From the IMG/VR virus record IMGVR_UViG_3300028914_000084: DNA of 20,000 nucleotides; one strand, given 5' to 3'. The notes beneath the pieces were generated by a model. The model ran no database searches. It worked only from the letters and a program-made list of their open reading frames with translations, and was not told the DNA's origin. Positions 1 through 18,917 of this stretch are shown here, piece after piece; positions within the stretch are counted from its first letter, which is position 1; each line of letters begins with the position of its first letter. Source of the stretch: an uncultured virus (IMG/VR IMGVR_UViG_3300028914_000084) (taxonomy: Duplodnaviria > Heunggongvirae > Uroviricota > Caudoviricetes). The position numbers were made by a program, and so were the translations under genes.

Positions 1-240
1 GACATAGAAAAGGTAATCTATGAGTTTATCCCATTTCATACCTTTCTTTTGTTCTTGATTATCTAATTTAGATTCTATTTTTTCTATTCTATCTTTCAAA
101 TCTTTTATATCTTCTTTATTTTGTCTTGATAAGGTTAATGCTACACTAGCGTCATCTTTTACTCTACCGTAATCTTTAATCATTTCTTTGATACTAGCTA
201 GTTCAGTTAATACTTTTATTTCAAAATCTTTAGTCTCCAT
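1..240 (-). CDS. XhlA-like/holin-associated small coiled-coil protein, 3' end truncated by window edge
   Basis: Not in ORF track. Hand translation from ATG at 240: METKDFEIKVLTELASIKEMIKDYGRVKDDASVALTLSRQNKEDIKDLKDRIEKIESKLDNQEQKKGMKWDKLIDYLFYV..., open to position 1. SD AGGTGGTGAT at 246-255. Coiled coil, then KW and the start of a hydrophobic stretch, located right after the fibre genes. Confidence 0.7.
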   Translation of the reverse strand, partial: METKDFEIKVLTELASIKEMIKDYGRVKDDASVALTLSRQNKEDIKDLKDRIEKIESKLDNQEQKKGMKWDKLIDYLFYV

Positions 241-255
241 ATTCTATCACCACCT

Positions 256-3200
256 TTATTCAAACACATCTTTTAAACTTCTAATAACTTCTGCATATAT
301 AATAAATGTCTTGTCAGTATTAGTTTGAGATATGTTAGTTTGTGTGTCATAAGAATATGTTTTTTTAATGTTGTTAAGTTGAGTAATAAGAGTAGTATCA
401 GTTATTTGTGTGTCAGTTGGTGTTGCTAATTGATAGTAAACTGAAACATTATTATCTTCTAACCAGTCAGTATATTCTTGTTTAGTAGTGAAACCATCGA
501 TTTTAAATGTCATTTTTTTACCACTATTCCATCCGAATTCTCCACTTTGAATGTTTGTAGTTATACTTGTTGCATAATAATGATATTCAAAATGGCTAGA
601 ATAAGCACTCATTGTTGCTCCAATTGCTCTAATGTCATTTGGCATTTCATTTGTACTTTGTAAAACATTATTTGTTAATGTCCAATCTTCAGTACCATTT
701 AATACTACTTTACCAATTTCACTATGTTTGTACCAATTACCATTACTTTCATATATGTAATCTTGATATGTTCCTATTTTACATAATTCCATACTACCTA
801 AATTGATAGGGAATACTTGACTTTCAGTATTATCACTATTTGATATTGTTATTGTGTTGTTTCCACTTACTACATTTACTTGACTAGGTCTACTTGGACT
901 TGGACTTGGTGTTACAAAGTTGTAATGTAAATCTATATAAGGTAGTAAATTACTTGTATCAGTGTTTATATTTGTTATAGGGTAGATAGTTGCATTATAT
1001 AAAGCATTTAATTGATTTACTAGTGTTGTATCAGTTATTTCAGTTGTTGTTGGTGTAGCATAAGGGTAATATACTATTACATTATTTTGAGATAACCAAG
1101 TTTGGAATTGTTGTGTTGTCATTTCTTTTGTAGCATTGTAATAAAAACCAAATGAGTTATATGAAAATATTGCATTTGTAGGATATATACAATCTTGTAA
1201 ATACCAAGCTTTGCTTCGACTACCACTTACAAATTTATTGCAGTAAAAAGGTGCATTTTCTTGTGTTGCATCAGTTGAATATATATTTGTACCAATATCT
1301 ATTGAAAAACTATAATAACCAGTAGCGCTTGTTGCTTTTCTTGCTATTGGCTCAGTACCATTTAAAACAACCTTACCAATTGTTTTATATAAATACCATT
1401 TATTATTTTGTTTGTATATTCTGTCTTGATATGTACTTATTTTGCATAATTCCATATTACCTAGATTTATTGGATATGTTGTACTTTGAGTATCATCACC
1501 GTTTGTAATAGTTATATTTTGTGTTCCTGTTACTATATCAATGTTACTAGGTCTTTTAGGTGATGGCGAAGGTGTTACCACATTATAATGTAAATCTATA
1601 TAAGGTAGTAGGTTAGTTGTATCAGTGTTTATATTTGTTATAGGGTAGATAGTTGCATTATATAAAGCATTTAATTGATTTACTAGTGTTGTATCAGTTA
1701 TTTCAGTTGTTGAAGTCTGCTGAGGATAATATACATTAGTATTATGTGTTCCTAACCAAGTTGTCCAATTCCCTACACTTGTTTCACTAGAATTAAACAT
1801 TATTGAATTTCCACCATCACGAATGGCAAATAATCCTGCCCTATTACTAGGGTATGATTTGGCATTTATAAAATAATTTGACAAAGCATCTATATAATTT
1901 GAAATAGAATGTATTATATTAGTATTAATATAATAATTACCTGATGTATCACTGCCTTTATACCACCCTGTTTCACTACCATTTAAAGTGATTTTACCAA
2001 TATTTTTTTCTAAATACCACTTATCATTTCTCTTGTAGATTCTATCTTGATAAGTTGATATTTTGCATAATTCTATATTGCCTAAATTTACTTGATATGT
2101 TGTTCCTTGAAATGTTTCGTATGTTGTAGCTATGTTATTTTTTTCAACTTGAATTGTTCCAGCTATTTCTTGTAATGTTTTTGCTGGGTTTGTATCATTA
2201 GCTTTTATAAACATATATAAATATTTTGCATTAGGGCTTGTTGTCAAAGTTAATGAAGTAGCACTATTATAACCACTTCGTTGTCCTGCATAACTTAAAG
2301 CATAATCTCCAATAACAGCAATATCTTCAGTATCGAATATACAAAATCTATCATTACCAAATAGTTCAGTCTTTGATACAGTGTAAGTCGTATTAGGTTG
2401 ACAAGGTATATAAATACAACCCCTACCTACGTTTGTTTCGGTTATTTTATTTGAATTTGATAAATAAATATTTTGGGTATTTATATTATTCTTATCTAAT
2501 AAGTTTTTACCACATACTTTAACATTTTGTGTTCCTGTTACTACCTCTATATTTTGTGGATAACTTGGGTTAGGTATACTTGCTACACTATCGTAAATGA
2601 ATGCTCCAGTCCCTTGATTAATGTAGAACACATTGTTTACCAAATCATATAGACCAATTTCATTATCACTATTTCGATAGCAAGGTATAAAATCTCTTAC
2701 TAATGTTCCATTATAATACATTTTACAAGCCCATAATTTGAATGTTCCTTTATATTGTGTAGCATTTGAATTTCTACCAAACAACCAAAAATTAAGTTCT
2801 ACATTATCAATATTTGTTGGTATTGTTGTAGTAGTTGTATTATCTAAAACTACTTTCCCTTCTGGTACATTTAAGTCCCATAAATGTCTATCTGTGCTTG
2901 CTGAGTTTATTATACCGTAATTTGCATCATTTACCCAAAATGCTATTGAATTTGAACCACTTAAAAGGTGATATCTTTTATTAGGTGTACCTATATTTAT
3001 TGCACCCATTGTTTGATTAGCATTTGTTGGGTTAATAAAAGAAATATCTAAAATAGTTCTTAATTTAGTATCTGCATTTATTCCAGTATCAATATATTGA
3101 CCACCTGTACTTCGAATATAATCAACTTGAGTGTATTCACTTGGTAATATTGCATTTGCTTGATAAGTATTACCACTTATTTCAATAGTATTTTCTTTAT

Positions 3201-5037
3201 TAGTGTTTACATCACTTACATATATGCTTGTGTTTGATACACTTGTTCCTTGTTCTTCTGAAATTGTTTCTTGATAAGTATTACCACTCATTTCAATAGT
3301 ATTTTCTTTATCAGTGTTTACATCACTTATATATATACTAGTATTTGATACACTTGTTCCTTGATCTTCAGGAATTACTACTTGACTTGTATTTCCTTTT
3401 AGGTCTATTTCTCTAAATTTTACTTTTGCGGTATTATTTAACTCTATTGTTGTATCTTCATCACTGACCGTTGGAAAAGCATTATACAACATTTCTAATT
3501 CAGCAAGTTGTTCATTTTGAATCTCTTGTTCATCTTTAATGTCAGAGATGTCATTTTCATTAGTTGTTATTTGTGTTTTTTCTTCTGCCGTAACAAATTT
3601 ATTAGTGTTATTAGTATCATCAACTAAATCACTAGCTAATTTATTATTTTCAGTTATTTCAGATTGTAAACCACTTACTAAATCAGCTACACTAAATCTT
3701 ACTTCTTGCCCATTTTTTAATGTTAATACTATTTCTTTTGTTGCACTATCATAAGCTGCGCCTACTACCATTGTTTCAAGTGGTAGGTCTATTGACTGCG
3801 TACTTAAAACTTGATTATTTCTTGTTTTTAATACAGCTGTCATTATATAAGTTAATGGGTCTATTGTTAAAGTAAGGTTTGAACCTGTCTCAGTTACTAA
3901 TGAAAATCTAGTATCAGCTGCTGTTTTATTATAATAATGTGATAATCCATTAGTATCATTTGTAATAAAACCACTATCGTTTATCAAATCATTAGTTGTA
4001 GTTGGTACAGATATATTAACATTTTTATTAGCATCAATAGGAAGATTAACTCCGTTTTTAGATATACTTCCTACTTTATTAGTCCATGATGTTTTATCAG
4101 AAGATGTTACAAATTTATGTGAGGATTCAGTATCATCAACTAAATCACTAGCTAATTTATTATTTTCAGTTATTTCAGATTGTAAACCACTTATTAAATC
4201 GCCTAATGGTATTTCTATAGTATTACCGTTTTCAAGAGTTAATATAATTTTTTTAGTTTCTGTATCATATGTACCACTAACTACAACACTTTCTAATGGT
4301 AAATCTATAACGTTGGATTCTGATAATAATATATTATTTTTATCGTAAATCATTGCTTTAACTTGATATGTTTGATTGTTTATATCAAGTTTTATTTTAT
4401 TAGCAGTTTCATCTATTGTTGAATATATAGTTAAATCTGGTTTATTTACTAATTCATTATAATCTGTAGTACCTTTATCACCTTTAGGAATACCAAAGTT
4501 AAATATTGGATTTCTTTCAGTACCAACATTTTCTACAGTTGCTTGAGAACCTTCTGGTAAAGTTGTAGTGCTACCAATTTCTATTGTAGGTAGATTATTA
4601 TCTATATAATCTATTAATTCTGGTTTAGCATTGGCTATTAAAGTCTGCATAGATTGATAATATTGTTCAAACTCATCTGGAGTGGGTTGTGTTGGACTTA
4701 TGCTATTTTCTATATAACTACCTTTATTAACATAGAAATGAGTTGGTTCTGGAGAATATCTTAATTTTAATTCATTATCTTCTAATTCATAAGCATAAAC
4801 TCCAAATGTATAAGTCCCTGGATTCTTTAATATATCATATGGTATATTGCATTCATCATTTGCGATAACCATTTCGTAAACAGTTCCATCATTTCCAACA
4901 AACAAAGCTTTCTTAACATAATTATCTATATATTCTTCAGAGAAATCGAAGTAAAACTTATTGATATTATATTCTCCGGAGTTTAATATTACGTCATTTT
5001 GAATCTCACATATATTAGCTGTTACTTTTACTCTCAT
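256..5037 (-). CDS. Giant modular tail fibre/receptor-binding protein with BppU-like N-terminal domain
   Basis: 1593-aa ORF, SD AGGAGGTGAT at 5041-5050. N-terminus resembles baseplate upper protein domains (FDFSEEY...CNIPYDIL..PG.YTFGVY...PTPDEFEQ). Followed by the fibre motif IGSTTTLPEGSQATVENVGT..NPIFNFGIPKGDKG, duplicated shaft modules, and repeated beta-rich domains. Confidence 0.85.
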   Translation of the reverse strand: MRVKVTANICEIQNDVILNSGEYNINKFYFDFSEEYIDNYVKKALFVGNDGTVYEMVIANDECNIPYDILKNPGTYTFGVYAYELEDNELKLRYSPEPTHFYVNKGSYIENSISPTQPTPDEFEQYYQSMQTLIANAKPELIDYIDNNLPTIEIGSTTTLPEGSQATVENVGTERNPIFNFGIPKGDKGTTDYNELVNKPDLTIYSTIDETANKIKLDINNQTYQVKAMIYDKNNILLSESNVIDLPLESVVVSGTYDTETKKIILTLENGNTIEIPLGDLISGLQSEITENNKLASDLVDDTESSHKFVTSSDKTSWTNKVGSISKNGVNLPIDANKNVNISVPTTTNDLINDSGFITNDTNGLSHYYNKTAADTRFSLVTETGSNLTLTIDPLTYIMTAVLKTRNNQVLSTQSIDLPLETMVVGAAYDSATKEIVLTLKNGQEVRFSVADLVSGLQSEITENNKLASDLVDDTNNTNKFVTAEEKTQITTNENDISDIKDEQEIQNEQLAELEMLYNAFPTVSDEDTTIELNNTAKVKFREIDLKGNTSQVVIPEDQGTSVSNTSIYISDVNTDKENTIEMSGNTYQETISEEQGTSVSNTSIYVSDVNTNKENTIEISGNTYQANAILPSEYTQVDYIRSTGGQYIDTGINADTKLRTILDISFINPTNANQTMGAINIGTPNKRYHLLSGSNSIAFWVNDANYGIINSASTDRHLWDLNVPEGKVVLDNTTTTTIPTNIDNVELNFWLFGRNSNATQYKGTFKLWACKMYYNGTLVRDFIPCYRNSDNEIGLYDLVNNVFYINQGTGAFIYDSVASIPNPSYPQNIEVVTGTQNVKVCGKNLLDKNNINTQNIYLSNSNKITETNVGRGCIYIPCQPNTTYTVSKTELFGNDRFCIFDTEDIAVIGDYALSYAGQRSGYNSATSLTLTTSPNAKYLYMFIKANDTNPAKTLQEIAGTIQVEKNNIATTYETFQGTTYQVNLGNIELCKISTYQDRIYKRNDKWYLEKNIGKITLNGSETGWYKGSDTSGNYYINTNIIHSISNYIDALSNYFINAKSYPSNRAGLFAIRDGGNSIMFNSSETSVGNWTTWLGTHNTNVYYPQQTSTTEITDTTLVNQLNALYNATIYPITNINTDTTNLLPYIDLHYNVVTPSPSPKRPSNIDIVTGTQNITITNGDDTQSTTYPINLGNMELCKISTYQDRIYKQNNKWYLYKTIGKVVLNGTEPIARKATSATGYYSFSIDIGTNIYSTDATQENAPFYCNKFVSGSRSKAWYLQDCIYPTNAIFSYNSFGFYYNATKEMTTQQFQTWLSQNNVIVYYPYATPTTTEITDTTLVNQLNALYNATIYPITNINTDTSNLLPYIDLHYNFVTPSPSPSRPSQVNVVSGNNTITISNSDNTESQVFPINLGSMELCKIGTYQDYIYESNGNWYKHSEIGKVVLNGTEDWTLTNNVLQSTNEMPNDIRAIGATMSAYSSHFEYHYYATSITTNIQSGEFGWNSGKKMTFKIDGFTTKQEYTDWLEDNNVSVYYQLATPTDTQITDTTLITQLNNIKKTYSYDTQTNISQTNTDKTFIIYAEVIRSLKDVFE
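908..1712. repeat. Direct repeat pair 908-1049 / 1571-1712 (663-bp spacing) with exact 96-bp core 954-1049 = 1617-1712
   Basis: Aligned by hand: 7 mismatches in 142 bp, none within the 96-bp core. Encodes TTEITDTTLVNQLNALYNATIYPITNINTDT(S/T)NLLPYIDLHYN(F/V)VTP. Confidence 0.95.
3159..3380. repeat. Tandem 111-bp (37-aa) repeat, two copies plus a diverged third unit at ~3381-3470
   Basis: 3159-3269 vs 3270-3380: 12 mismatches in 111 bp. Encodes QGTSVSNTSIY(I/V)SDVNT(D/N)KENTIE(M/I)SGNTYQ. The adjacent unit ends LKGNTSQ at the same period. Confidence 0.95.
3613..4193. repeat. Exact 65-bp direct repeat 3613-3677 = 4129-4193 (516-bp spacing) inside a diverged ~115-aa duplicated module
   Basis: AGTATCATCAACTAAATCACTAGCTAATTTATTATTTTCAGTTATTTCAGATTGTAAACCACTTA present twice. 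Encodes SGLQSEITENNKLASDLVDDT. Confidence 0.95.
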
Positions 5038-9530: not shown

Positions 9531-12140
9531 TTAGATTCCTCCTTCAACTCTTGTTACATTCATTGTTACTGGTATTATTAAACTATCATAATTAATATTA
9601 TAATTTACACTGATATTAGCCCAGTAACCAGTACCAGATGGTTCTCGAACATATACATCACCTGTCCATTTTGATAATCGTCTTATAGCATATAATGTTT
9701 CTTTATCATCCTTTGGTATTGCAGTTGTCCAAGTAGATGATTCACCTAATTGTGTACCATAATAACTAACTGGATGCGACCTACCAACATATTCTACAAG
9801 ACTCATGTCTATTGAATTATTATCGCTTATAGTTATATTATAAGGTAATCTTAAAAGAGAACCAGACCATGGTTTCTCAACAGCGGCATCTTCACCACTC
9901 TCATCGAAATTAATCCACTTTTCAGCCCATTGAATTATTATAGCAAATTCTCCAAACTTAACAGGTTCTATATCAGCATATGACATAGCGCCAGTTTCAG
10001 ATTCTTTAGCTACAATTCTATAGCGAGCATAATCTAATGTTGGATGAGGGTCTGTTATATATAAACCTTCTTGATTATTTATATCCTTTGCTATCTCTGT
10101 AAAGCTTCCATCATAATTTATTCGATATACAGACATTAAACAATCTGTAACTAATTCTTCAATTATTTCACCATCTATATTAGAAAATTCGTAACATAAA
10201 GGATTGATAGTTGCTTCATATGTTTCAGTATTTAGGTTTATAATGGCTCTAACATCGTAATATTTTTCATCAAAGAAAGCGGAGAATGTTTTACTATTAG
10301 AACCATTTAAACCTGAGTTCATTGCAACTGTACAATTTATTGTATAACTTATTCCTGATTGTAAGTCGATATTACCTGGGGTAAATTCTAAAAGGAAACG
10401 CCAGGCATTCGAAGTAGGGTCGTATGTTTTAGCATATATTATATCACCAGCGTTTATAACTTTTTGATTACCGGTATTGTCTAGTGTAATATAACCTTCG
10501 TTAGCTACAACTTCTACGTAATAACTTATAGGAGTTTGTGCTGGTGGAGTTGCTAACACTGATAAATAAAAAGGAAAACTAGATACTTCATCAATTGATT
10601 CATCAGCATTATTCTTTAAATCCAATGTAACAGTTGGTTGTGCATAGAAATTTATTTCTCTTTCAGTAGAATATTCACTATATTCACTTGTTACTCCAGC
10701 TGTTTGAACTCTCCATTTAATTTTAAACCCTTGTTGTATGAATGTCCATTCAGGGTCTGTACTGTCAATTGTATATGAACTTGTACGATTATTTGCTTCA
10801 TTTTCGACTATTTGATGGTGTATTACTTTTTCAATAACCATAGGAACTGACGATGGGTCTGTTGTATCTATTGCTTCCATATGAAGTCTAGCTACAGTTT
10901 CCACAGAACCATCAGTAGAGTTGTGTGTCCAGTATAAATTTACACTGTTTCCGATTATGACAGAAGTTATAGTAGTCCAAGTAGTAGGAGCAGCAGGTCT
11001 TGTACCTATATTAGTAGACCTAATATCCGTCCATTTTGATTGTCCTTTTTCATTAACTGCATTCACACGGAAAAAGTATTCATGACCTAATTCTATATCA
11101 GTCAATAATGTATGTTCACCACTACTTTTATCAACAGTTACTGATGTTACTCCAGAACCACTGTCAAAATATTCAGGATTTGTAGTGTACTCTATTGTGT
11201 AACTATCAGCTGTATCAACTGGTGACCATTCAATATATATACCGTATGTTCTAGTACCTTGTTCGACTATTGCTTTTGATTCTAGGTTTGTTATTTCTTC
11301 TGGCGCTACAGGAGTGGATTTTTGATTTGTTGTAAAATTAGTCCATCCACCATATATATTACCTCTTATGGCTCTACATCTTATTCTGTATGTATGTCCA
11401 GGGTCTACATCACAAGTATATGATAAAGATAATGTCTCAAAATTTATAGGAACTATAGGTGAATTAAATTTAATAGTATCGTCTTGATATATAGCGATTT
11501 CTATATCAGTTCCATTGATATGCTCGTCTATATTATCCATTGTGACTGTTAATTTATTATACGCGTCTATTTCAAAATATGGATCTGGTGGTAATAATGG
11601 TGGATTATTTCTAAAGTCATATTCCAAATAACCCCAATCAGTATTAGGTAAAGGGTTTCCATCGTTATCAACAGGTCTTACACTGAATCTACATACATTC
11701 CATCCTTCTGTAGAATCTAATGTAAATACAGAAGCTTTATTGTTGACTGATGTGTTGTAATTAGTATTCTGTTCTTTTATCCATAAATGACCTGCGTTAT
11801 CCCATTGTTCCCATCTGTACCAATAATGATTAGAATAATCATAAGCCCAAATAGCTTCCATAGTTCTATCAGAACCTGCTTGTAATTTAAGCCATTCTAT
11901 TCTTGGTCTATCTGGCGATGGAGCTGAAGGGGAAGCATTCGGATTGCTCCCTCCCCCATATCCAGGTGTAATACCAGGAAGTGCTAATAATTGATTTGGA
12001 TAAATTATACCACTGCTTTGTGGAATCCCGTTAGCATCTGCTATTTCTCTCCATCTGTATGGATTATTATAGACTGATTGAGCTATATCCCAAAGACAGT
12101 CTCCGGCATATACATGCCATCTATTATTTTCTAAACCCAT
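9531..12140 (-). CDS. Distal-tail-like minor tail protein with N-terminal LysM and fibronectin-III-like domains
   Basis: 869 aa directly after the tape measure. LysM motif HVYAGDCLWDIAQSVY...WREIADANGI...IIYPNQLLALP. Fn3-like ends DPGHTYRIRCRA..G.YGGWT and ELGHEYFFRVNAVNEKGQSKWT. C-terminal Dit-like region (YVGRSHPV...VYVREPSG). Confidence 0.8.
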   Translation of the reverse strand: MGLENNRWHVYAGDCLWDIAQSVYNNPYRWREIADANGIPQSSGIIYPNQLLALPGITPGYGGGSNPNASPSAPSPDRPRIEWLKLQAGSDRTMEAIWAYDYSNHYWYRWEQWDNAGHLWIKEQNTNYNTSVNNKASVFTLDSTEGWNVCRFSVRPVDNDGNPLPNTDWGYLEYDFRNNPPLLPPDPYFEIDAYNKLTVTMDNIDEHINGTDIEIAIYQDDTIKFNSPIVPINFETLSLSYTCDVDPGHTYRIRCRAIRGNIYGGWTNFTTNQKSTPVAPEEITNLESKAIVEQGTRTYGIYIEWSPVDTADSYTIEYTTNPEYFDSGSGVTSVTVDKSSGEHTLLTDIELGHEYFFRVNAVNEKGQSKWTDIRSTNIGTRPAAPTTWTTITSVIIGNSVNLYWTHNSTDGSVETVARLHMEAIDTTDPSSVPMVIEKVIHHQIVENEANNRTSSYTIDSTDPEWTFIQQGFKIKWRVQTAGVTSEYSEYSTEREINFYAQPTVTLDLKNNADESIDEVSSFPFYLSVLATPPAQTPISYYVEVVANEGYITLDNTGNQKVINAGDIIYAKTYDPTSNAWRFLLEFTPGNIDLQSGISYTINCTVAMNSGLNGSNSKTFSAFFDEKYYDVRAIINLNTETYEATINPLCYEFSNIDGEIIEELVTDCLMSVYRINYDGSFTEIAKDINNQEGLYITDPHPTLDYARYRIVAKESETGAMSYADIEPVKFGEFAIIIQWAEKWINFDESGEDAAVEKPWSGSLLRLPYNITISDNNSIDMSLVEYVGRSHPVSYYGTQLGESSTWTTAIPKDDKETLYAIRRLSKWTGDVYVREPSGTGYWANISVNYNINYDSLIIPVTMNVTRVEGGI

Positions 12141-12143
12141 ATA

Positions 12144-15100
12144 TTACACTCTCCCTTCAATTTCTATTGCTTTAATTAAATCGCTAACTGCTTGTGCAAT
12201 AGGTGTACCATCGTTATATGAAATACCTCCGAAATTATATGTATTACCAGGTGTTTGTTCAGACATTGATGTTTTAAGTTTATCAATAGCGCTAACAATG
12301 TCACTATTAGTTGCCGCATTTTGATTTTGTAATTTCAATCCAGAACTTATAGCATTAATATTAGCACCTATACCGATGTTTTGTCCATCAAATATAGAAC
12401 CTATTCTAGTAGCGCCAGATTCTATATTACTTAAATCTAGAACTGGTGTTATAGTAGGACTCATATCTGATTCAGAATTTATAATATCAGTTATTTTTCC
12501 TAATGCATCTGACATTCCTAATTTAGCAGTTTCGCCAACATCATTGGATGCACTATATACATTTCTAGCATATTCAATTATACCGTTTACTAAACCTAAA
12601 TCAAAGAATTTACCCATTTCATGAGTTGCTTTAGAAGGTGATTTTTCCTTTAATGCATCTTTAGCGGCTTGTAATGCTCCTTTACCTAGTTCAGTACTGG
12701 CATTTATTACTAAATATTGGTTATCAGCTATTCCGTTTGCTAAACCTCTAACAAAGTTTTCACCTAATTTATTAGCTGAATCCTTCCCCATTTTAGCCTT
12801 TACACCTTCTATAGCTGATTTAGCCATTGCTTTAGAAGCATTATTTAATTTAGTTTTAGTATCTTGATTTTCAAAACTAGATAATAAACCCTTAATGCCT
12901 TTATCACCTAAATCTTTTAAGGCTGTAGATAATCCAGTTATAGATTTTACATCAACTGTTTCGAAACTTTTAACAAATTTAACCACATCAGTTACATTTC
13001 CTAACGCTGCTAAAATAGTAGAACTATCTATCACTGCTATACTATTCATGAAATCTGCTATAGATGATCCTAAACTTTTTAAATTTATAGATTGAGATAT
13101 GATTTCTTTTAGTCCTTTTCCTTTTAAAGATTTTAACAAATTAATAACACTATTTATAATAGTAGATACAGTTGTTATTCTTTCATCCTCTATATCACCA
13201 AAACCAGTTACAAATCCGGCAATACCTACTGCTAATTCTGGTAAACTTCTGCCAAATGATGTAAAATCATTTTCTCCAACTAATTTACTTAGTAATCCTC
13301 CAGCATTAGGTATGTCTTGCGCTACTTTTGTAAGTTGTTTTATAACTGAACAAGCTACTTTAACACCGCCAACACTATCTTCTGTTATGCCATTTTGATC
13401 AAGTATGTGTATAAAAGACGCTAATCCGTTTGCTACAGATGGTAAATTTACAGAAAATGAATACATATCATTATCGCCAACTAATGCACTTAGTAATCCG
13501 CCAGCGTTAGGTATCTCTTGTGATACTTTGGCTAATCGTTTTATAGCTTCACATGCAACTTTAACAGGAGCAAGGCTATCTTTTGTTATGCTTGCTTGGT
13601 TTAGGTTATCGATAAATCCTACTAATCCACTGGCTACAACTGGTAATGTTGATGCAAATTCATCTGGGTCATTGTTGCCTAATAGAGCTCCAGCAATACC
13701 TCCTGAATTTGGTATAGTTGCAGCTGCTTCTGAAATTAACTTTAATGCTTCACAAGCTACTTTAACTTTTTCAACATCTTTTATAGGTTTTATATTTTTA
13801 TTAAAATTTGCCAACCCGGTACCCAATTGTGCTAAATTAGTGCCAAACTCTTCGAATGATGTTTTACTAAATATAGATATTGAATCTATAAATTTAGCAC
13901 TAGTTAATGCTAATATCGCTTTTGATAGATTTAACATAGAAGTTGCTACTTCTGGTTTTATATTAGCAGCACCTTTTATAAATGGATCAATAGATATCAT
14001 AAATAATGATAATTCTAATCCGAATTTCGTAAGACTTGTTTTACCAGACATGAGTGACATTATTCCAGAAACTAGCTCAGCTGCTGATAAAATTAATATA
14101 GATGCAGATAATGTTCCTATTCTTTTTATAAGATCACCGTCTATCATTTTAGAACCAGCGAAGAATGGAGTTAGTGATGTCATAAATAATGATAATGATT
14201 GTCCTAAAGCTGGTAATAAAGTTAATAATTCTTTTCCGAAACCAGCAACTATACTACCTGCAAAAGCTCCTATAGCAGTACCGATGGCTGTTAATATAGG
14301 TATTCCTGATTCTAAGAATTTTGCTGCATTTGGGAATAATTTATTCAATCCTCCAAAAGCTAACAATAATACTCCAAATGCACCTATCAAAGCTATTAAA
14401 GAACCAATTCCAACTAATGCTGCTGGACCAGCTAATCCTATTAAAGCTAAGGCACCTAATACAGCAGTCATACTTAATAACATTATGGACACTGAGGTAA
14501 CCATTTTTATAGATTTGTCGGGGTCTAATTTTACTAACGCTGATATTATAAGTACTAACAATGGCAATACTGTAGAAGACATTATTACTAATAAAGCTAT
14601 TCCAGCATATGCATTTTTACCGCCTAATTTAGAAACTAAAGTCATAGCTGCTAAAGTACCAGATAAAGCTATTAGTAACATAGATAATGAACTTGCTGAT
14701 GCTAATGCTCTTTCTGGATCTAATTTAGATAATGAATGTATTAATATTGTCATTATAGCTAAAGTACCCATTAACACTAATGATACTGCTGCTAATGACT
14801 TTATATCTTTACTATTCATTTTCTTAGATGATTGTATTAACAATGATAACGATAATATTATAGCGGTTACAGCAGACGTAGCTGCTAATAGATTTTGTGG
14901 TTTTATTAAACTTAATACTATAACAAAACCTAATAATACGGACATTGCTGCTATTAAACTAGTTAATGTCTTAGTAGCATTGTGTGATTTTGAAGTTGCT
15001 GCTATAAGACCTGAGAATAACACCGCTATTACTGCTATTACTGTTGTACCTTTAACCAAATCTTTTGTTTCCATAGTTGATAATATATACATTATAGCAG

Positions 15101-18100
15101 CTAATATAGCTATTGCACCAGCAACTTCTAGTAACATAACACCTGCTTTTTTAGCATTTTTTCCAGCAAAATGAGATATACCAATTAACATTGATACTAT
15201 TACTCCCATCGCTGCCATTGCTATAGCACCTCTAGTTAAGCCTTCTTTTGGTATTGTGGATAGTAATTTTATAGATGCTACTATTCCAAGCATAGCTAAA
15301 CTGAAGCCACCTATTAATAAAGCAGCCTTGTTTGCATTTTTTCCGGATTTAGATGAGAATGCCATTAATATTCCCATCATTCCCACGACACTAGCTACTA
15401 CTAGTTCGCCTTTAACAACGTCTCTTGGTTTCATCATTGATGCTATTTTTATAACACCTAATAATAACATCATAGAACCAGTTAATGATAATATAAGCCA
15501 AGCGGCTTTATCAGCATTTTTTCCAGCGAATCTAGATAATGCTATAAATGCAGCGAATATGCCACCTGCTAAACTTAGTGAACCAATGGCTTTGTTAACT
15601 TCGTCTTTTGTTATCTTAGATGCTAATTTTATAACTAATAGCATCAACAATAAAGATACTGATATTTTCTTAAGTGACTTTGTTACACTTACTAATTGAT
15701 CTCCAGTTATATTGAGCAACTTAGTTAATCCGCCAATAGCTCCTAATAATACAGTCATAGCCACTATAACAGTTACTAATCCGTTAATTGCGTTTAATAA
15801 CGAATATGTATCTATTCCAGATAACTTCTTTAGAGCTATAGTCATTGCCAATAAAGCTAACGATAAACCAATAATAGGTCCAATATTAAAAGTCGCTTTT
15901 TTAGCTTTTGCATTGATGCTTCCGCCAGCTGTTCCACCTGCACCTGCTAATTTATCAACTACAACAAATAATGCAGTTAATACGGTAAGCATTACGCCAC
16001 ATACTATAACAGCGGATGTTAATCTATCTGGTTCGATTTTAGATATTATATACATAGAAGCAGCAATCATTAATAAACTTAATGCTATACCTTTTATAAC
16101 ACCTTTTATAGCTTCTAATTTCTTAGCAGTTCCCAAATCAACAAGGAAATTCTGTACTCCGGTACCTACCTGTTTCATCATATCACCAAAAGATTTCAAT
16201 GGTGATACTACTGAATTAACTATTCCTACTATTTTATCTGCTGTATCGTTCATTCTTTTTGCTAGATACATCAAACCGCCAGCTAATCCAACAGCGAACA
16301 TTTTTCTATAATCAACACTACTTAATATTTCTGACACATTACTGAAAGAATTGATTATATTATTTTTCATTGTTTTTCCGAAATTTAATATATTATTCCA
16401 GATTGTAGTTTCGACTTTTTGAAGTGGTTTCATTTGCGAAGCCATACCTAATAATAAACCAAGTATTATAAACTTACCTATTTTGAAGAATTCTTTAGAA
16501 GGTGAATGAATATCAAGTACTTTACATACTGTTTCTATTAAACTAGCTGCAAAACCACCCATAAAACTTGTAACTTTAGATGTTCCGCTAACTAATCCAT
16601 TTAGCAATCCACTTATTATATACATTGGTATATTCTTTGTTTTAGCTAATCCGTTTATCCATCCGCTTAAACCACCAAATAAATTACCAAATACTCTTCT
16701 TATTATACCGTCTGAACTGGTTAATTGTTTAACGAAGTTAGATAAACTTACTTTTAAATAGTCTAATATTTTCTTTATATTACCAAGTACTTTTTGTACT
16801 GTTTCATTTGTTGTTATGAATTCTTTAGTTCTTTTAACAACATTTACAATAGCTGGTATAATGGTCTCTGTAACTCTTTTAAAAGTTACATGCTCTTTTA
16901 TCCATTTTCTAGCAGCATTAGTAGCTTCATATAAAATATTACCCCAATGACCTAATACTTCTAGGAATGTTGCACTAGGATCTATGATTAAACCTAATGC
17001 AGTGCCGAGTCCTTTTAATACTATAGTTAAAACACTTTTTATAGAATCTGATACTAAACCAATTACTCCGAATAAACCTTTAAATATACTTACTAAATGC
17101 TCGGCATTAGATACAACGCCATCATGATCATTTATTTCTCCTAAATAATCTTTTAATATTCTTGTTAATTTATAAAAACCAGTTGTAAGATTAAATAACA
17201 CAGTACCAGCCTCTTTTGGAGGAAATACTTCAACCCATGCTTTACCTATTGCATGGAATATTGTTATAATAGTTTTTCCTATATTTCCAAAAGACTCCAT
17301 TAATAGCCAACGACCGTTTATATCATCCATATTATGAAGTAATTCTTTAACAGGCATTGCTAGTCTTTTTGATAATTTAACAATTTGATTAATAGCATCT
17401 TGTTGCTTTTCGGATAATCCGTTATATTCTTCTAAAAATATAAGTTCATCTTGATTTAGTTCTTTTCCTTCTTCTCGCTTCTTGACCGCTTCTGCTATAT
17501 TAGCTATCCAATCTTTAGTAGATTCATTTAATTTATCAGTCGCATCCGCTACAGATTCTGTAGATTCAACATAACTAGTTTCTCTTCGTAAACTAAAACC
17601 CAATCTCTCATTAACGAGATTTTGTGCATGTGCCCAATCATAACCAGCTTCTGATAGCTTATCCCATCTAGCTTGACCGTTACCCCATATACCATTAATT
17701 ATTTCATCTACAACATTAGCATAATCAGCAACTGTTTTTACAGCATCTTTTAAACCTTCAGTAGATTCTTTAACAGAAGAAAATGCTTCTGACATGGCGT
17801 CAAACGTTTTAGTAAATGTTTTGCCTAAGAAACTATTTAAATATTTATTTCTTATAGTAGCGACACTGTCTATTACGGCACCTAATGCATTACTAGCTCC
17901 AGTCCATAATTTTTTAGCCTGGTTAAAATCACCGAATATTATTTGAAAAGATTGTGCCCAACCAGATTGAACTGCTTCTGTTAACGTATCAATTAGCATC
18001 GAAAAAGTTTTTACATCTTGAGCCGCTGCCTTGGCTTTTTGTCCTACTATTGTTTCTTCTGATGAATATTTTTTTAAAGTTGTTATCAATACATCAGAAG

Positions 18101-18917
18101 TCATCCATTGGTCTTTTAATGAATCATTAAAATTAGATATAGCATTTAACGTTTCACCCTCCAATGTTTCATACATATCATCGCCAGTTTTTATAAGCGT
18201 GCCCATTTCGACAGCGGTTTGAATTAATTCATTTTTGAAATCTTTAGTAGCCATATTAGCATTTTCGATAGATTTCCAATCAATTAATTTTACATAACCA
18301 GCTGATAAAGCTTGAGCAAAGTTATACATAGCTCTAGACGCTTCATTAGCATTTGCTCCAGAAAGAGCAGCTTCATTACTTACACCCTTAATAGCTGCTA
18401 CCGCGTCTTCTAACTTAACACCCATATTAGTAAATTTACCAATATTGGTTGTCATGTCTTGAAATGAGTAAATAGTTTGGTCTGAATATTTATTTAACTC
18501 TTCTAAATATTCATTTACTTTTTCTAGACTTTCTCCTGTACCAGACATAATTGTTTGAATTGAGCTCATTTTGAGTTCGTATTCATCAAATCCGGCTTTT
18601 TTAGGATCTATTACTAATTTCTTTCCTAAATTTAGACCAAAATCCATAACTGTATTAGTTATTCGTCTCATAGTTTGGTCTGCTATCGAATACAAAGAAT
18701 TAAATTGTAATCCGACTTGTTCTATTCCTTTTGTTAATGGGTTAAAATTAACACGGTTTGCTGAGGCTGATAGTTCATCGAGTCCTTTTGTCATTCCTGA
18801 GAAATTTAAACTAGATTTTAATTTGTCTATGGTAGATAATGATGTTTTAACATTTTTTTCAAAATTTCTATTATCAAAACTCATCTCGACGACTTTTTTG
18901 TCGACTGTTTTACTCAT
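12144..18917 (-). CDS. Tail tape measure protein
   Basis: 2257 aa, SD AAGGAG. N-terminal tape-measure domain (LEELNKYSDQTIYSFQDMT...AMYNFAQALSAGYVKLIDWKSIENANM), long helical/hydrophobic repeats, SPSK motifs, position after chaperones. Confidence 0.95.
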   Translation of the reverse strand: MSKTVDKKVVEMSFDNRNFEKNVKTSLSTIDKLKSSLNFSGMTKGLDELSASANRVNFNPLTKGIEQVGLQFNSLYSIADQTMRRITNTVMDFGLNLGKKLVIDPKKAGFDEYELKMSSIQTIMSGTGESLEKVNEYLEELNKYSDQTIYSFQDMTTNIGKFTNMGVKLEDAVAAIKGVSNEAALSGANANEASRAMYNFAQALSAGYVKLIDWKSIENANMATKDFKNELIQTAVEMGTLIKTGDDMYETLEGETLNAISNFNDSLKDQWMTSDVLITTLKKYSSEETIVGQKAKAAAQDVKTFSMLIDTLTEAVQSGWAQSFQIIFGDFNQAKKLWTGASNALGAVIDSVATIRNKYLNSFLGKTFTKTFDAMSEAFSSVKESTEGLKDAVKTVADYANVVDEIINGIWGNGQARWDKLSEAGYDWAHAQNLVNERLGFSLRRETSYVESTESVADATDKLNESTKDWIANIAEAVKKREEGKELNQDELIFLEEYNGLSEKQQDAINQIVKLSKRLAMPVKELLHNMDDINGRWLLMESFGNIGKTIITIFHAIGKAWVEVFPPKEAGTVLFNLTTGFYKLTRILKDYLGEINDHDGVVSNAEHLVSIFKGLFGVIGLVSDSIKSVLTIVLKGLGTALGLIIDPSATFLEVLGHWGNILYEATNAARKWIKEHVTFKRVTETIIPAIVNVVKRTKEFITTNETVQKVLGNIKKILDYLKVSLSNFVKQLTSSDGIIRRVFGNLFGGLSGWINGLAKTKNIPMYIISGLLNGLVSGTSKVTSFMGGFAASLIETVCKVLDIHSPSKEFFKIGKFIILGLLLGMASQMKPLQKVETTIWNNILNFGKTMKNNIINSFSNVSEILSSVDYRKMFAVGLAGGLMYLAKRMNDTADKIVGIVNSVVSPLKSFGDMMKQVGTGVQNFLVDLGTAKKLEAIKGVIKGIALSLLMIAASMYIISKIEPDRLTSAVIVCGVMLTVLTALFVVVDKLAGAGGTAGGSINAKAKKATFNIGPIIGLSLALLAMTIALKKLSGIDTYSLLNAINGLVTVIVAMTVLLGAIGGLTKLLNITGDQLVSVTKSLKKISVSLLLMLLVIKLASKITKDEVNKAIGSLSLAGGIFAAFIALSRFAGKNADKAAWLILSLTGSMMLLLGVIKIASMMKPRDVVKGELVVASVVGMMGILMAFSSKSGKNANKAALLIGGFSLAMLGIVASIKLLSTIPKEGLTRGAIAMAAMGVIVSMLIGISHFAGKNAKKAGVMLLEVAGAIAILAAIMYILSTMETKDLVKGTTVIAVIAVLFSGLIAATSKSHNATKTLTSLIAAMSVLLGFVIVLSLIKPQNLLAATSAVTAIILSLSLLIQSSKKMNSKDIKSLAAVSLVLMGTLAIMTILIHSLSKLDPERALASASSLSMLLIALSGTLAAMTLVSKLGGKNAYAGIALLVIMSSTVLPLLVLIISALVKLDPDKSIKMVTSVSIMLLSMTAVLGALALIGLAGPAALVGIGSLIALIGAFGVLLLAFGGLNKLFPNAAKFLESGIPILTAIGTAIGAFAGSIVAGFGKELLTLLPALGQSLSLFMTSLTPFFAGSKMIDGDLIKRIGTLSASILILSAAELVSGIMSLMSGKTSLTKFGLELSLFMISIDPFIKGAANIKPEVATSMLNLSKAILALTSAKFIDSISIFSKTSFEEFGTNLAQLGTGLANFNKNIKPIKDVEKVKVACEALKLISEAAATIPNSGGIAGALLGNNDPDEFASTLPVVASGLVGFIDNLNQASITKDSLAPVKVACEAIKRLAKVSQEIPNAGGLLSALVGDNDMYSFSVNLPSVANGLASFIHILDQNGITEDSVGGVKVACSVIKQLTKVAQDIPNAGGLLSKLVGENDFTSFGRSLPELAVGIAGFVTGFGDIEDERITTVSTIINSVINLLKSLKGKGLKEIISQSINLKSLGSSIADFMNSIAVIDSSTILAALGNVTDVVKFVKSFETVDVKSITGLSTALKDLGDKGIKGLLSSFENQDTKTKLNNASKAMAKSAIEGVKAKMGKDSANKLGENFVRGLANGIADNQYLVINASTELGKGALQAAKDALKEKSPSKATHEMGKFFDLGLVNGIIEYARNVYSASNDVGETAKLGMSDALGKITDIINSESDMSPTITPVLDLSNIESGATRIGSIFDGQNIGIGANINAISSGLKLQNQNAATNSDIVSAIDKLKTSMSEQTPGNTYNFGGISYNDGTPIAQAVSDLIKAIEIEGRV
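13161..13763 (-). repeat. Three 67-aa (201-bp) repeats in the tape measure protein
   Basis: KVAC...IPN(S/A)GG...G.ND...F...LP..A.G...F. The Lys codons at 13761, 13560 and 13359 are exactly 201 bp apart. Confidence 0.9.
15154..15524 (-). repeat. 60-aa (180-bp) hydrophobic repeats in the tape measure protein
   Basis: GCATTTTTTCC (GKNA) at 15154, 15334 and 15514. More degenerate units flank both sides. Confidence 0.85.

Follow-up and report, generated by a model that had tools for sequence, protein, structure and literature searches.

The gene at positions 256..5037 (minus strand) of the window, by which we mean the whole 20,000-nucleotide stretch analysed here from an uncultured Caudoviricetes virus (IMG/VR IMGVR_UViG_3300028914_000084), encodes a protein of 1593 aa that the list of open reading frames (ORFs) and its neighbours mark as a tail fibre or receptor-binding protein. 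We propose that the C-terminal 1070 residues of this protein are three nested copies of one discontinuous beta-sandwich module, a reading that we regard as quite probable. Each copy has an N-terminal piece (A), a linker element (L) and a longer return piece (B), and the pieces follow one another along the chain as A1-A2-A3-X-L3-Y-B3-L2-B2-L1-B1, with X and Y as guest domains. An earlier note on this DNA had described the protein as one domain inserted into itself three levels deep, and its nested interpretation is supported by our analysis.

In its simplest form, the module would consist of an N-terminal hairpin ending in GxTxQ (A), a proline linker with two strands reading PxPxxP..VVTG (L), and a core with a hypervariable middle that closes with a helix and a C-terminal hairpin (B). 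This last hairpin is proposed to pack with A and L, which would bring the two ends of the module side by side, and a whole module or another domain could therefore sit at site 1, between GxTxQ and PxPxxP, or at site 2, between L and the B core. In the 1593-aa protein, an N-terminal anchor and repeat rod (aa 1-522) would end in a helical stretch before A1, from which the chain would run outward through A1, A2 and A3 to the LamG-like domain X and back through L3-Y-B3, L2-B2 and L1-B1. Each level would close a galectin-like sandwich, and the stack would carry X, Y and three hypervariable B cores. We infer that the targets of X, Y and the variable cores are glycans in the cell wall of a Bacillota host; a single chain could then present as many as five binding units. 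More broadly, and with somewhat more reserve, we think it likely that this is an abundant and unnamed receptor-binding module of uncultured Bacillota phages, whose ends meet, which serves as both host and guest, and which is recursive to at least three levels, thereby stacking binding units on one chain.

All units of the protein lie on the minus strand. The N-terminal strands of the outermost, middle and innermost modules are A1 (aa 523-552; 3382..3471), which ends GNTSQ, A2 (aa 553-589; 3271..3381), which ends GNTYQ, and A3 (aa 590-626; 3160..3270). They are followed by X (aa 627-818; 2584..3159), a LamG/pentraxin/ConA-like jelly roll that is the guest at site 1 of the innermost module. The return half of that module begins with the proline linker and strands of L3 (aa 819-841; 2515..2583), which opens PNPSYPQNIEVVTG, continues with Y (aa 842-976; 2110..2514), a jelly roll of the GKNL...YE.F type resembling a carbohydrate-binding module (CBM) and the guest at site 2, and closes with the B3 core and C-terminal hairpin (aa 977-1154; 1576..2109). 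L2 (aa 1155-1177) and B2 (aa 1178-1375) together form the return half of the middle module (913..1575), which was predicted with high confidence, and L1 (aa 1376-1398) and B1 (aa 1399-1593) form that of the outermost module (259..912), for which there are structural matches.

The elements and motifs quoted in the earlier note are all present in the translation, with unit coordinates that differ by 1-10 bases. Its three undivided return segments, 'B3' (aa 819-1154; 1576-2583), 'B2' (aa 1155-1375) and 'B1' (aa 1376-1593), are indeed repeats, but it had passed over two features of them. Each opens with the separable element L, a PxPxxP linker and ..VVTG.. strands, and the first also holds the inserted domain Y. 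Y is ~135 aa long, starts GKNLLD (GKNLLD...YETF) and lies between the L3 strands and the ..NLG..ELCKI core, which is why 'B3' is longer than B2 and B1.

The likeness among the A and among the B repeats far exceeds what chance would give: in tiled self-BLASTP the E values were 9e-34 for B3/B2, 7e-26 for B2/B1, 2e-15 for B3/B1 and 3e-6 for A2/A3. At the DNA level A2 and A3 are identical at 99 of 111 nt (89.2%), and the longest stretch that B3 and B2 share without a mismatch measures 96 bp (aa 1109-1140 vs 1330-1361), both as the earlier note had reported. A1 is, as it had also said, the odd one out (50-51% DNA identity to A2 or A3), and the C-terminal hairpin of B1 is of the type seen in stand-alone modules. 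That A2/A3 and B3/B2 are adjacent tandem duplicates at the DNA level also suits a different explanation, in which the protein holds two independent tandem arrays: the A hairpins would form a stalk of their own, the L-B units would be self-sufficient, and the numbers of the two would match through side-on docking or shared ancestry. We consider this explanation improbable, first because contiguous A-L-B is the commonest form of the module among its relatives, with guests at fixed sites inside it.

The module is defined by an A hairpin ending ..GxTxQ, by PxPxxP..VVTG, by ..LG..ELCKIG.YQD.IYK..W, and by VYY.LATPT.T.ITD..L..QL with the terminal hairpin. All three copies in the 1593-aa protein carry these A-L-B motifs, and a module hidden Markov model (HMM) matched their L+B parts at E 1.5e-45 to 3.2e-72. 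When short proteins were searched with L1+B1, 197 relatives came up, many of them complete at 245-310 aa. These short proteins run from an N-terminal helix into ..EG.s.tL.NT....idLKGNTSQ, then.GTPTP..P..V.VV.G and the ELCKIG core, and on from ..ELCKIG.YQD.IYK.. to VYY.LATPT.TEITD and a terminal hairpin. P0126 and others read GNTSQ-NGTPTPSTP...VVSG...ELCKIG...VYY.LATPT.TEITD. The contiguous form that had been predicted, with GNTxQ leading straight into PxPxxP, was found in 62 of the 175 single-module relatives (plus P0126); the others carry guests at site 2 only (71/175), at site 1 only (25/175) or at both sites (17/175).

Two side observations concern the build of these relatives. The variable middle of B is missing from P0228 (170 aa), P0241 (331 aa) and the last B of P0008, P0027, P0038 and P0040, and the centre of the B core thus behaves like a third, dispensable or exchangeable site. 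Five proteins (P0082, P0103, P0110, P0121 and P0250) have two complete modules head to tail ([A..B][A..B]); going by these parses, both tandem and nested expansion occur in the A-L-B family.

One nested relative has no guest domain. P0243 (545 aa) reads helix, A1 (54-80), A2 (81-118), NGTPTPTSP..L2-B2 (to 326) and PAPSPQRPS..L1-B1 (to 545). Judged from its sequence, a complete contiguous module sits here in site 1 of another module. Because P0243 is nested without lectin guests, nesting is no by-product of such guests. An AlphaFold2 model of P0243 (73-row alignment) had a mean predicted local distance difference test score (pLDDT) of 90.6 and a predicted template modelling score (pTM) of 0.78, with A1 and A2 at 94 or above. 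Foldseek of this model against the PDB gave nothing usable (top matches at template modelling (TM) score <0.15). VIA-align matched it to five phage Dit galectin-like domains (Z 6.0-7.5, root-mean-square deviation (rmsd) 3.3-3.6 A, 101-114 residues aligned), all spanning 85-88..325-327, a range that begins in A2 and stops where B2 does. Generic sandwiches (CBM35, the nucleoplasmin core and glycosidase sandwich domains; Z 4.0-4.6, 74-99 aligned) instead span 46-54..539-545, from A1 to the end of B1. These single-domain matches begin in an A and finish at the hairpin of the matching B, which is hard to reconcile with A and L-B as independent arrays.

A similar pattern was found in the predicted structure of aa 520-1593 of our protein (AlphaFold2, 55-row alignment, pTM 0.60), in which A1 and A2 have pLDDT >90 and B2 and B1 are mostly at 80-97. 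Foldseek found no match to this model in the PDB at E<=0.001. VIA-align placed CUB-type and other sandwiches across model residues 1..1068, 1..1074 and 2..1068 (75-77 aligned, Z 4.2-4.8), and one sandwich across 38..858 (74 aligned, Z 4.1), the latter range running from A2 to B2. The ranges 1..1068/1074 run from A1 to B1. A template of ~100 residues that aligns to both ends of a 1074-residue model implies that those ends lie in one compact body. The predicted structures are consistent with the pairing of A1 with B1 and of A2 with B2, and at these two levels they favour the claim of the earlier note that A and B make up one domain, with A1/B1 outermost and the next copy in the GNTxQ loop. At the third level, A3 would pair with B3 in the same way. 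A complex prediction of A1+A2 (aa 520-589) with L2-B2-L1-B1 (aa 1151-1593) gave run scores of 0.73, 0.00 and 0.00, without controls, and we count it neither way.

The two guests were compared with solved structures in the same way. X (model residues 112-300) matched LamG, pentraxin and ConA-like jelly rolls at Z 8.0-9.4 (rmsd 3.5-4.4 A, 135-161 aligned), with at least 17 entries at Z>=8 among the matches listed. Y (model residues 324-450) matched a CBM-like domain of a Cry protoxin (Z 6.4-6.8) and CBM16 (Z 5.6). Neither X nor Y has a Pfam match. X also occurs alone, in tandem arrays of 3-10 copies in proteins without A, L or B (P0026, P0053, P0076, P0041, P0066 and about 20 others).

The nested grammar could also be right while the pairing takes place between chains, as a domain swap in which the A of one chain of a trimeric fibre completes the B of its neighbour. 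Tail fibres are usually trimers, helical stretches precede A1 in the P0243 model (H3-23, H28-48), and our models were made of monomers only, all of which would leave room for such an exchange. However, the monomer models already put A with B of the same chain at pLDDT >90 and pTM 0.78, and we think a swap unlikely.

Co-variation among relatives provides a separate line of evidence. In a mean-field direct coupling analysis of 186 unambiguous modules (effective number of sequences, Meff, 168), pairs linking A to the C-terminal hairpin of B made up 7 of the top 50 couplings (1.5 expected) and 12 of the top 100 (3.0 expected). Pairs linking A to the B core were absent from the top 50 (8 expected) and numbered 3 in the top 100 (16 expected). 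Positions 14-17 of L couple to the same C-terminal hairpin, and when A was shuffled among all sequences, three shuffles left no A-to-hairpin pair. A thus tracks L and the hairpin in preference to the variable core, as would fit a sub-domain formed from the two ends of the module; it is not what self-sufficient L-B units would lead one to expect. A Potts model trained on single modules preferred the nested over the parallel assignment in 36 of 38 nested proteins, and in all three of the three-level proteins it ranked the nested order best of 6 permutations.

Several points weigh against the nested reading and limit how far it can be taken. A3 (pLDDT ~35) and B3 (~30) also have the thinnest alignment columns, and at pLDDT ~30-35 the model lends no support to the A3-B3 pairing. 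The VIA-align ranges are indirect evidence, since they give the first and last aligned residue only, and the matches to the outer module are weak (Z 4-4.8). The likeness to Dit, at a best Z of 7.5, falls below 8, in what is the tool's grey zone and is common for models with no clear match. Shuffles of A confined to hairpin subfamilies still left 1 and 4 A-to-hairpin pairs among the 50 strongest couplings (7 observed); about half of the A-to-hairpin signal would on this evidence be co-inheritance and not contact, and half finer co-variation. The Potts preference owes most to the pairing of A1 with the last B, and the inner assignment in the 1593-aa protein is marginal (339.4 vs 337.4). The nested proteins are also kin, so 36/38 does not stand for 36 independent events. 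This kinship, like the part of the co-variation that lies at subfamily level, would also suit two independent arrays.

The register of the outermost level is better fixed than that of the inner ones. Across 176 stand-alone modules, the similarity profile of A1 correlates with that of the B1 hairpin at r 0.75 and with those of B2/B3 at 0.37; for L, the values are +0.25 with L1 and -0.50/-0.36 with L2/L3. Sequence does not settle the inner register, since A2 so closely resembles A3 and the B2 hairpin that of B3; there the case depends on chain topology and on the structural match across 38..858. The same likeness leaves some room for a parallel or crossed register (A1-B3, A2-B2, A3-B1), which we nevertheless judge very unlikely: the structural match ranges 1..1068/1074 and 38..858 disagree with it, A1 has a pLDDT >90 while that of B3 is ~30, A1 tracks B1 in both the profile and the Potts tests, and insertion into a contiguous ancestor cannot produce such an order.

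If A and B are halves of one domain, their numbers should agree, and the earlier note had predicted that they would. We ran unit HMMs over 360 collected proteins and took the HMM-only parse as a starting point; early automatic counts were noisy, since the short A was missed by HMMs and Y and B matches overlapped, and were superseded by better profiles and manual checks. The parse gave 176 ALB, 35 AALBLB, 3 AAALBLBLB (plus 1 AAALBBLB), 5 tandem ALBALB, 24 proteins without any unit (pure X arrays) and a tail of apparently unbalanced strings. An apparent excess of A in 8 of the 360 was artefactual throughout: seven had a B that was split into two matches or lacked its variable middle, and the eighth, P0264, is an ORF truncated exactly at the next PAPSPK. 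Apparent deficits of A were mostly missed GxTxQ motifs or N-terminal fragments. Among 33 'LbB' proteins, 29 carry GxxxQ immediately ahead of L and the remaining 4 are fragments that start inside the preceding unit, and in the long 'ALBLB', 'LBLB' and 'LB' proteins the missing GNTSQ or GDTxQ is mostly at the expected place. A handful of long proteins (e.g. P0051, P0060, P0081, P0086, P0102 and P0104) have no canonical A motif.

A second, independent collection of 80 viral contigs contained 74 complete ORFs with modules (44 ALB, 23 LB, 1 AALBLB, 1 LBLB and others), none of which had an excess of A; 17 of the 23 LB ORFs have an A motif by eye and 6 do not. The 1593-aa protein itself reads AAA..LB LB LB, with equal A and B and balanced brackets. 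An A:B ratio of 1:1, 2:2 or 3:3 thus holds in nested and in tandem order, as predicted, with no credible complete protein among those parsed being unequal. That no unbalanced complete protein survived curation argues against two independent arrays, with the reservation that the nested proteins are, as said, related to one another.

How the third level arose can be approached from the DNA. Between levels 2 and 3 identity is 89% in A, 92% in the B hairpin and 84% in the strand and helix that precede it, and it falls to 77% at the start of the core, 61% in L and 52% in the variable core. The parts that we suppose to touch one another share the same high identity, which would fit matched duplication or homogenisation of the scaffold, and divergence or exchange of the binding core alongside it. 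We hypothesize that the newest level could have come from one module inserted once into site 1, or equally from two tandem duplications, one of A and one of L-B, whose unbalanced intermediates were lost to selection. The earlier note had argued for recursive self-insertion rather than tandem duplication; the nested order it described holds, but two matched tandem duplications fit equally well and its exclusion of them is not settled.

Parts of this architecture have precedents. The five best matches to the scaffold (P0243) are all Dit galectin-like C-terminal domains, from SPP1 (2x8k), p2 (2wzp), monocin (9j1k), 80alpha (6v8i) and TP901-1 (4v96), and the next rows are at Z 4.8. Evolved Dits are described as having one or two CBMs inserted in loops of the galectin domain, and the Dit of p2 as having a long insertion after the first strand (PMC7291167). 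These loop insertions parallel sites 1 and 2 of the A-L-B module. However, the 1593-aa protein lacks a Dit ring domain or Pfam match (E<=0.01), its gene comes last in the tail module, four ORFs downstream of that for the tape measure instead of directly after it, and the guest in an A-L-B module can be a copy of the host domain, up to three levels. From the models, we take the Dit likeness to be resemblance and not membership.

Recursive nesting as such has been described for Si3 of the cyanobacterial RNA polymerase beta' subunit (RpoC2), to six levels and in the form A1-B1-C-B2-A2 (PMC13114784). Si3 is alike in that homologous small beta domains (hybrid-motif) are recursively inserted in one another, but it has another fold, belongs to a cellular enzyme, functions in something other than adhesion and carries no guest lectin domains at its centre. 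Its crystal structure (8emb) appeared as a weak Foldseek match to the P0243 model (rank 4, E 1.7e-3, TM 0.09), which is not evidence of homology.

In gp37, which forms the tip of the long tail fibre of phage T4, the chain likewise reaches the tip and then turns back, and the part that binds the receptor is at the distal end. The 1593-aa protein would follow a like out-and-back path if nested; unlike it, gp37 is an intertwined trimeric needle and not a series of nested globular sandwiches, and we found no similarity between the two. For X and Y, the relation to LamG/pentraxin/ConA-like lectins and to CBM jelly rolls is one of structural likeness, with no Pfam model matching either. The literature that we searched on nested and self-inserted domains gave no account of a phage receptor-binding protein nested in itself, nor of the A-L-B family. 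The insertion of CBMs into galectin-like loops and recursive nesting are already known, and a self-nested phage module seems undescribed.

Judging by metagenomes of gut and rumen, the family seems to be very common, although Pfam has no model for it and deposited phages gave no match. With metagenomic proteins clustered at 50% identity, a profile of the minimal module found 15,529 representatives at E<=1e-3 and 3,787 at the stricter E<=1e-30, and tblastn of L1+B1 and of P0126 against 50,697 deposited phage genomes gave no match. The genome loci with modules (n=17) come from gut and rumen metagenome-assembled genomes (MAGs) labelled Bacilli, Clostridia, Erysipelotrichaceae, Lachnospiraceae and Ruminococcus, with a few Saccharibacteria. 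The module-bearing contigs L002, L009, L011 and L014 lie in MAG bins labelled Candidatus Saccharibacteria, which could be mis-binning or could reflect phages of that group.

Receptor-binding proteins set the host range of phages, and domains are normally added to proteins head to tail. If the nested topology is real, binding domains would instead be added inward, leaving the protein's own ends unmoved, and selection would remove any change in copy number that leaves an A without its B. The strict balance of A and B would then be a clear case of structural constraint on the evolution of repeats. We would also have a self-similar adhesin scaffold, a way of expanding repeats that differs from tandem arrays, and a natural model for the engineering of multivalent binders. 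The fixed and naturally tolerated insertion sites may lend themselves to engineering the specificity of phages or tailocins, and the A-L-B grammar would let annotation pipelines parse long 'hypothetical' tail proteins.

The setting of the gene agrees with a role at the tail tip. The window is AT-rich (GC 27-34%), and its sequence recurs unchanged within a 33.2-kb uncultured viral record with an estimated completeness of 51%; megablast of the window against the same 50,697 deposited phage genomes gave no match. Its tail module is on the minus strand and runs from the tape measure gene (12144-18917, 2257 aa) through four further tail ORFs to the 1593-aa ORF at 256-5037. This is the last tail gene, adjoined by an XhlA-like lysis ORF that runs off the window. 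Because of this position, we read the 1593-aa protein as the distal tail fibre or receptor-binding protein.

Sequence searches add little to this assignment. Pfam gave nothing at the gathering threshold for the whole 1593-aa protein and six pieces of it, and none at E<=0.01 for the whole protein. The sole PHROGs match is to a family of unknown function at aa 150-221, in the N-terminal part. A PDB sequence search returned only a weak match to a hyaluronidase (aa 184-235, E 0.021), with no sequence-level match of the scaffold, X or Y to solved structures.

The N-terminal anchor and rod (3472..5037) would attach the protein, probably in trimeric form, at the tip of the tail; just before A1 it has the predicted helical stretch. 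Its internal repeat has two copies, aa 203-326 (4060-4431) and aa 376-498 (3544-3912), with 51% aa identity, 66% DNA identity and a self-BLASTP E of 3e-30, and both copies end in ..SGLQSEITENNKLASDLVDDT..

Among the other tail genes, that for the 2257-aa tape measure protein (minus strand) may encode an internal cell-wall-binding or lytic segment: at aa 401-439 there is a CW_7 repeat (E 2.3e-10), and aa 392-440 match PHROGs of endolysin type. The gene that immediately follows, an 869-aa ORF (9531-12140, minus strand), has a fibronectin type III domain, a LysM match below the Pfam cut-off (19.9 vs 20.9 bits) and no Dit-type Pfam match. A 589-aa open frame on the plus strand (13405-15174) lies antisense within the tape measure gene and is probably an artefact of composition.

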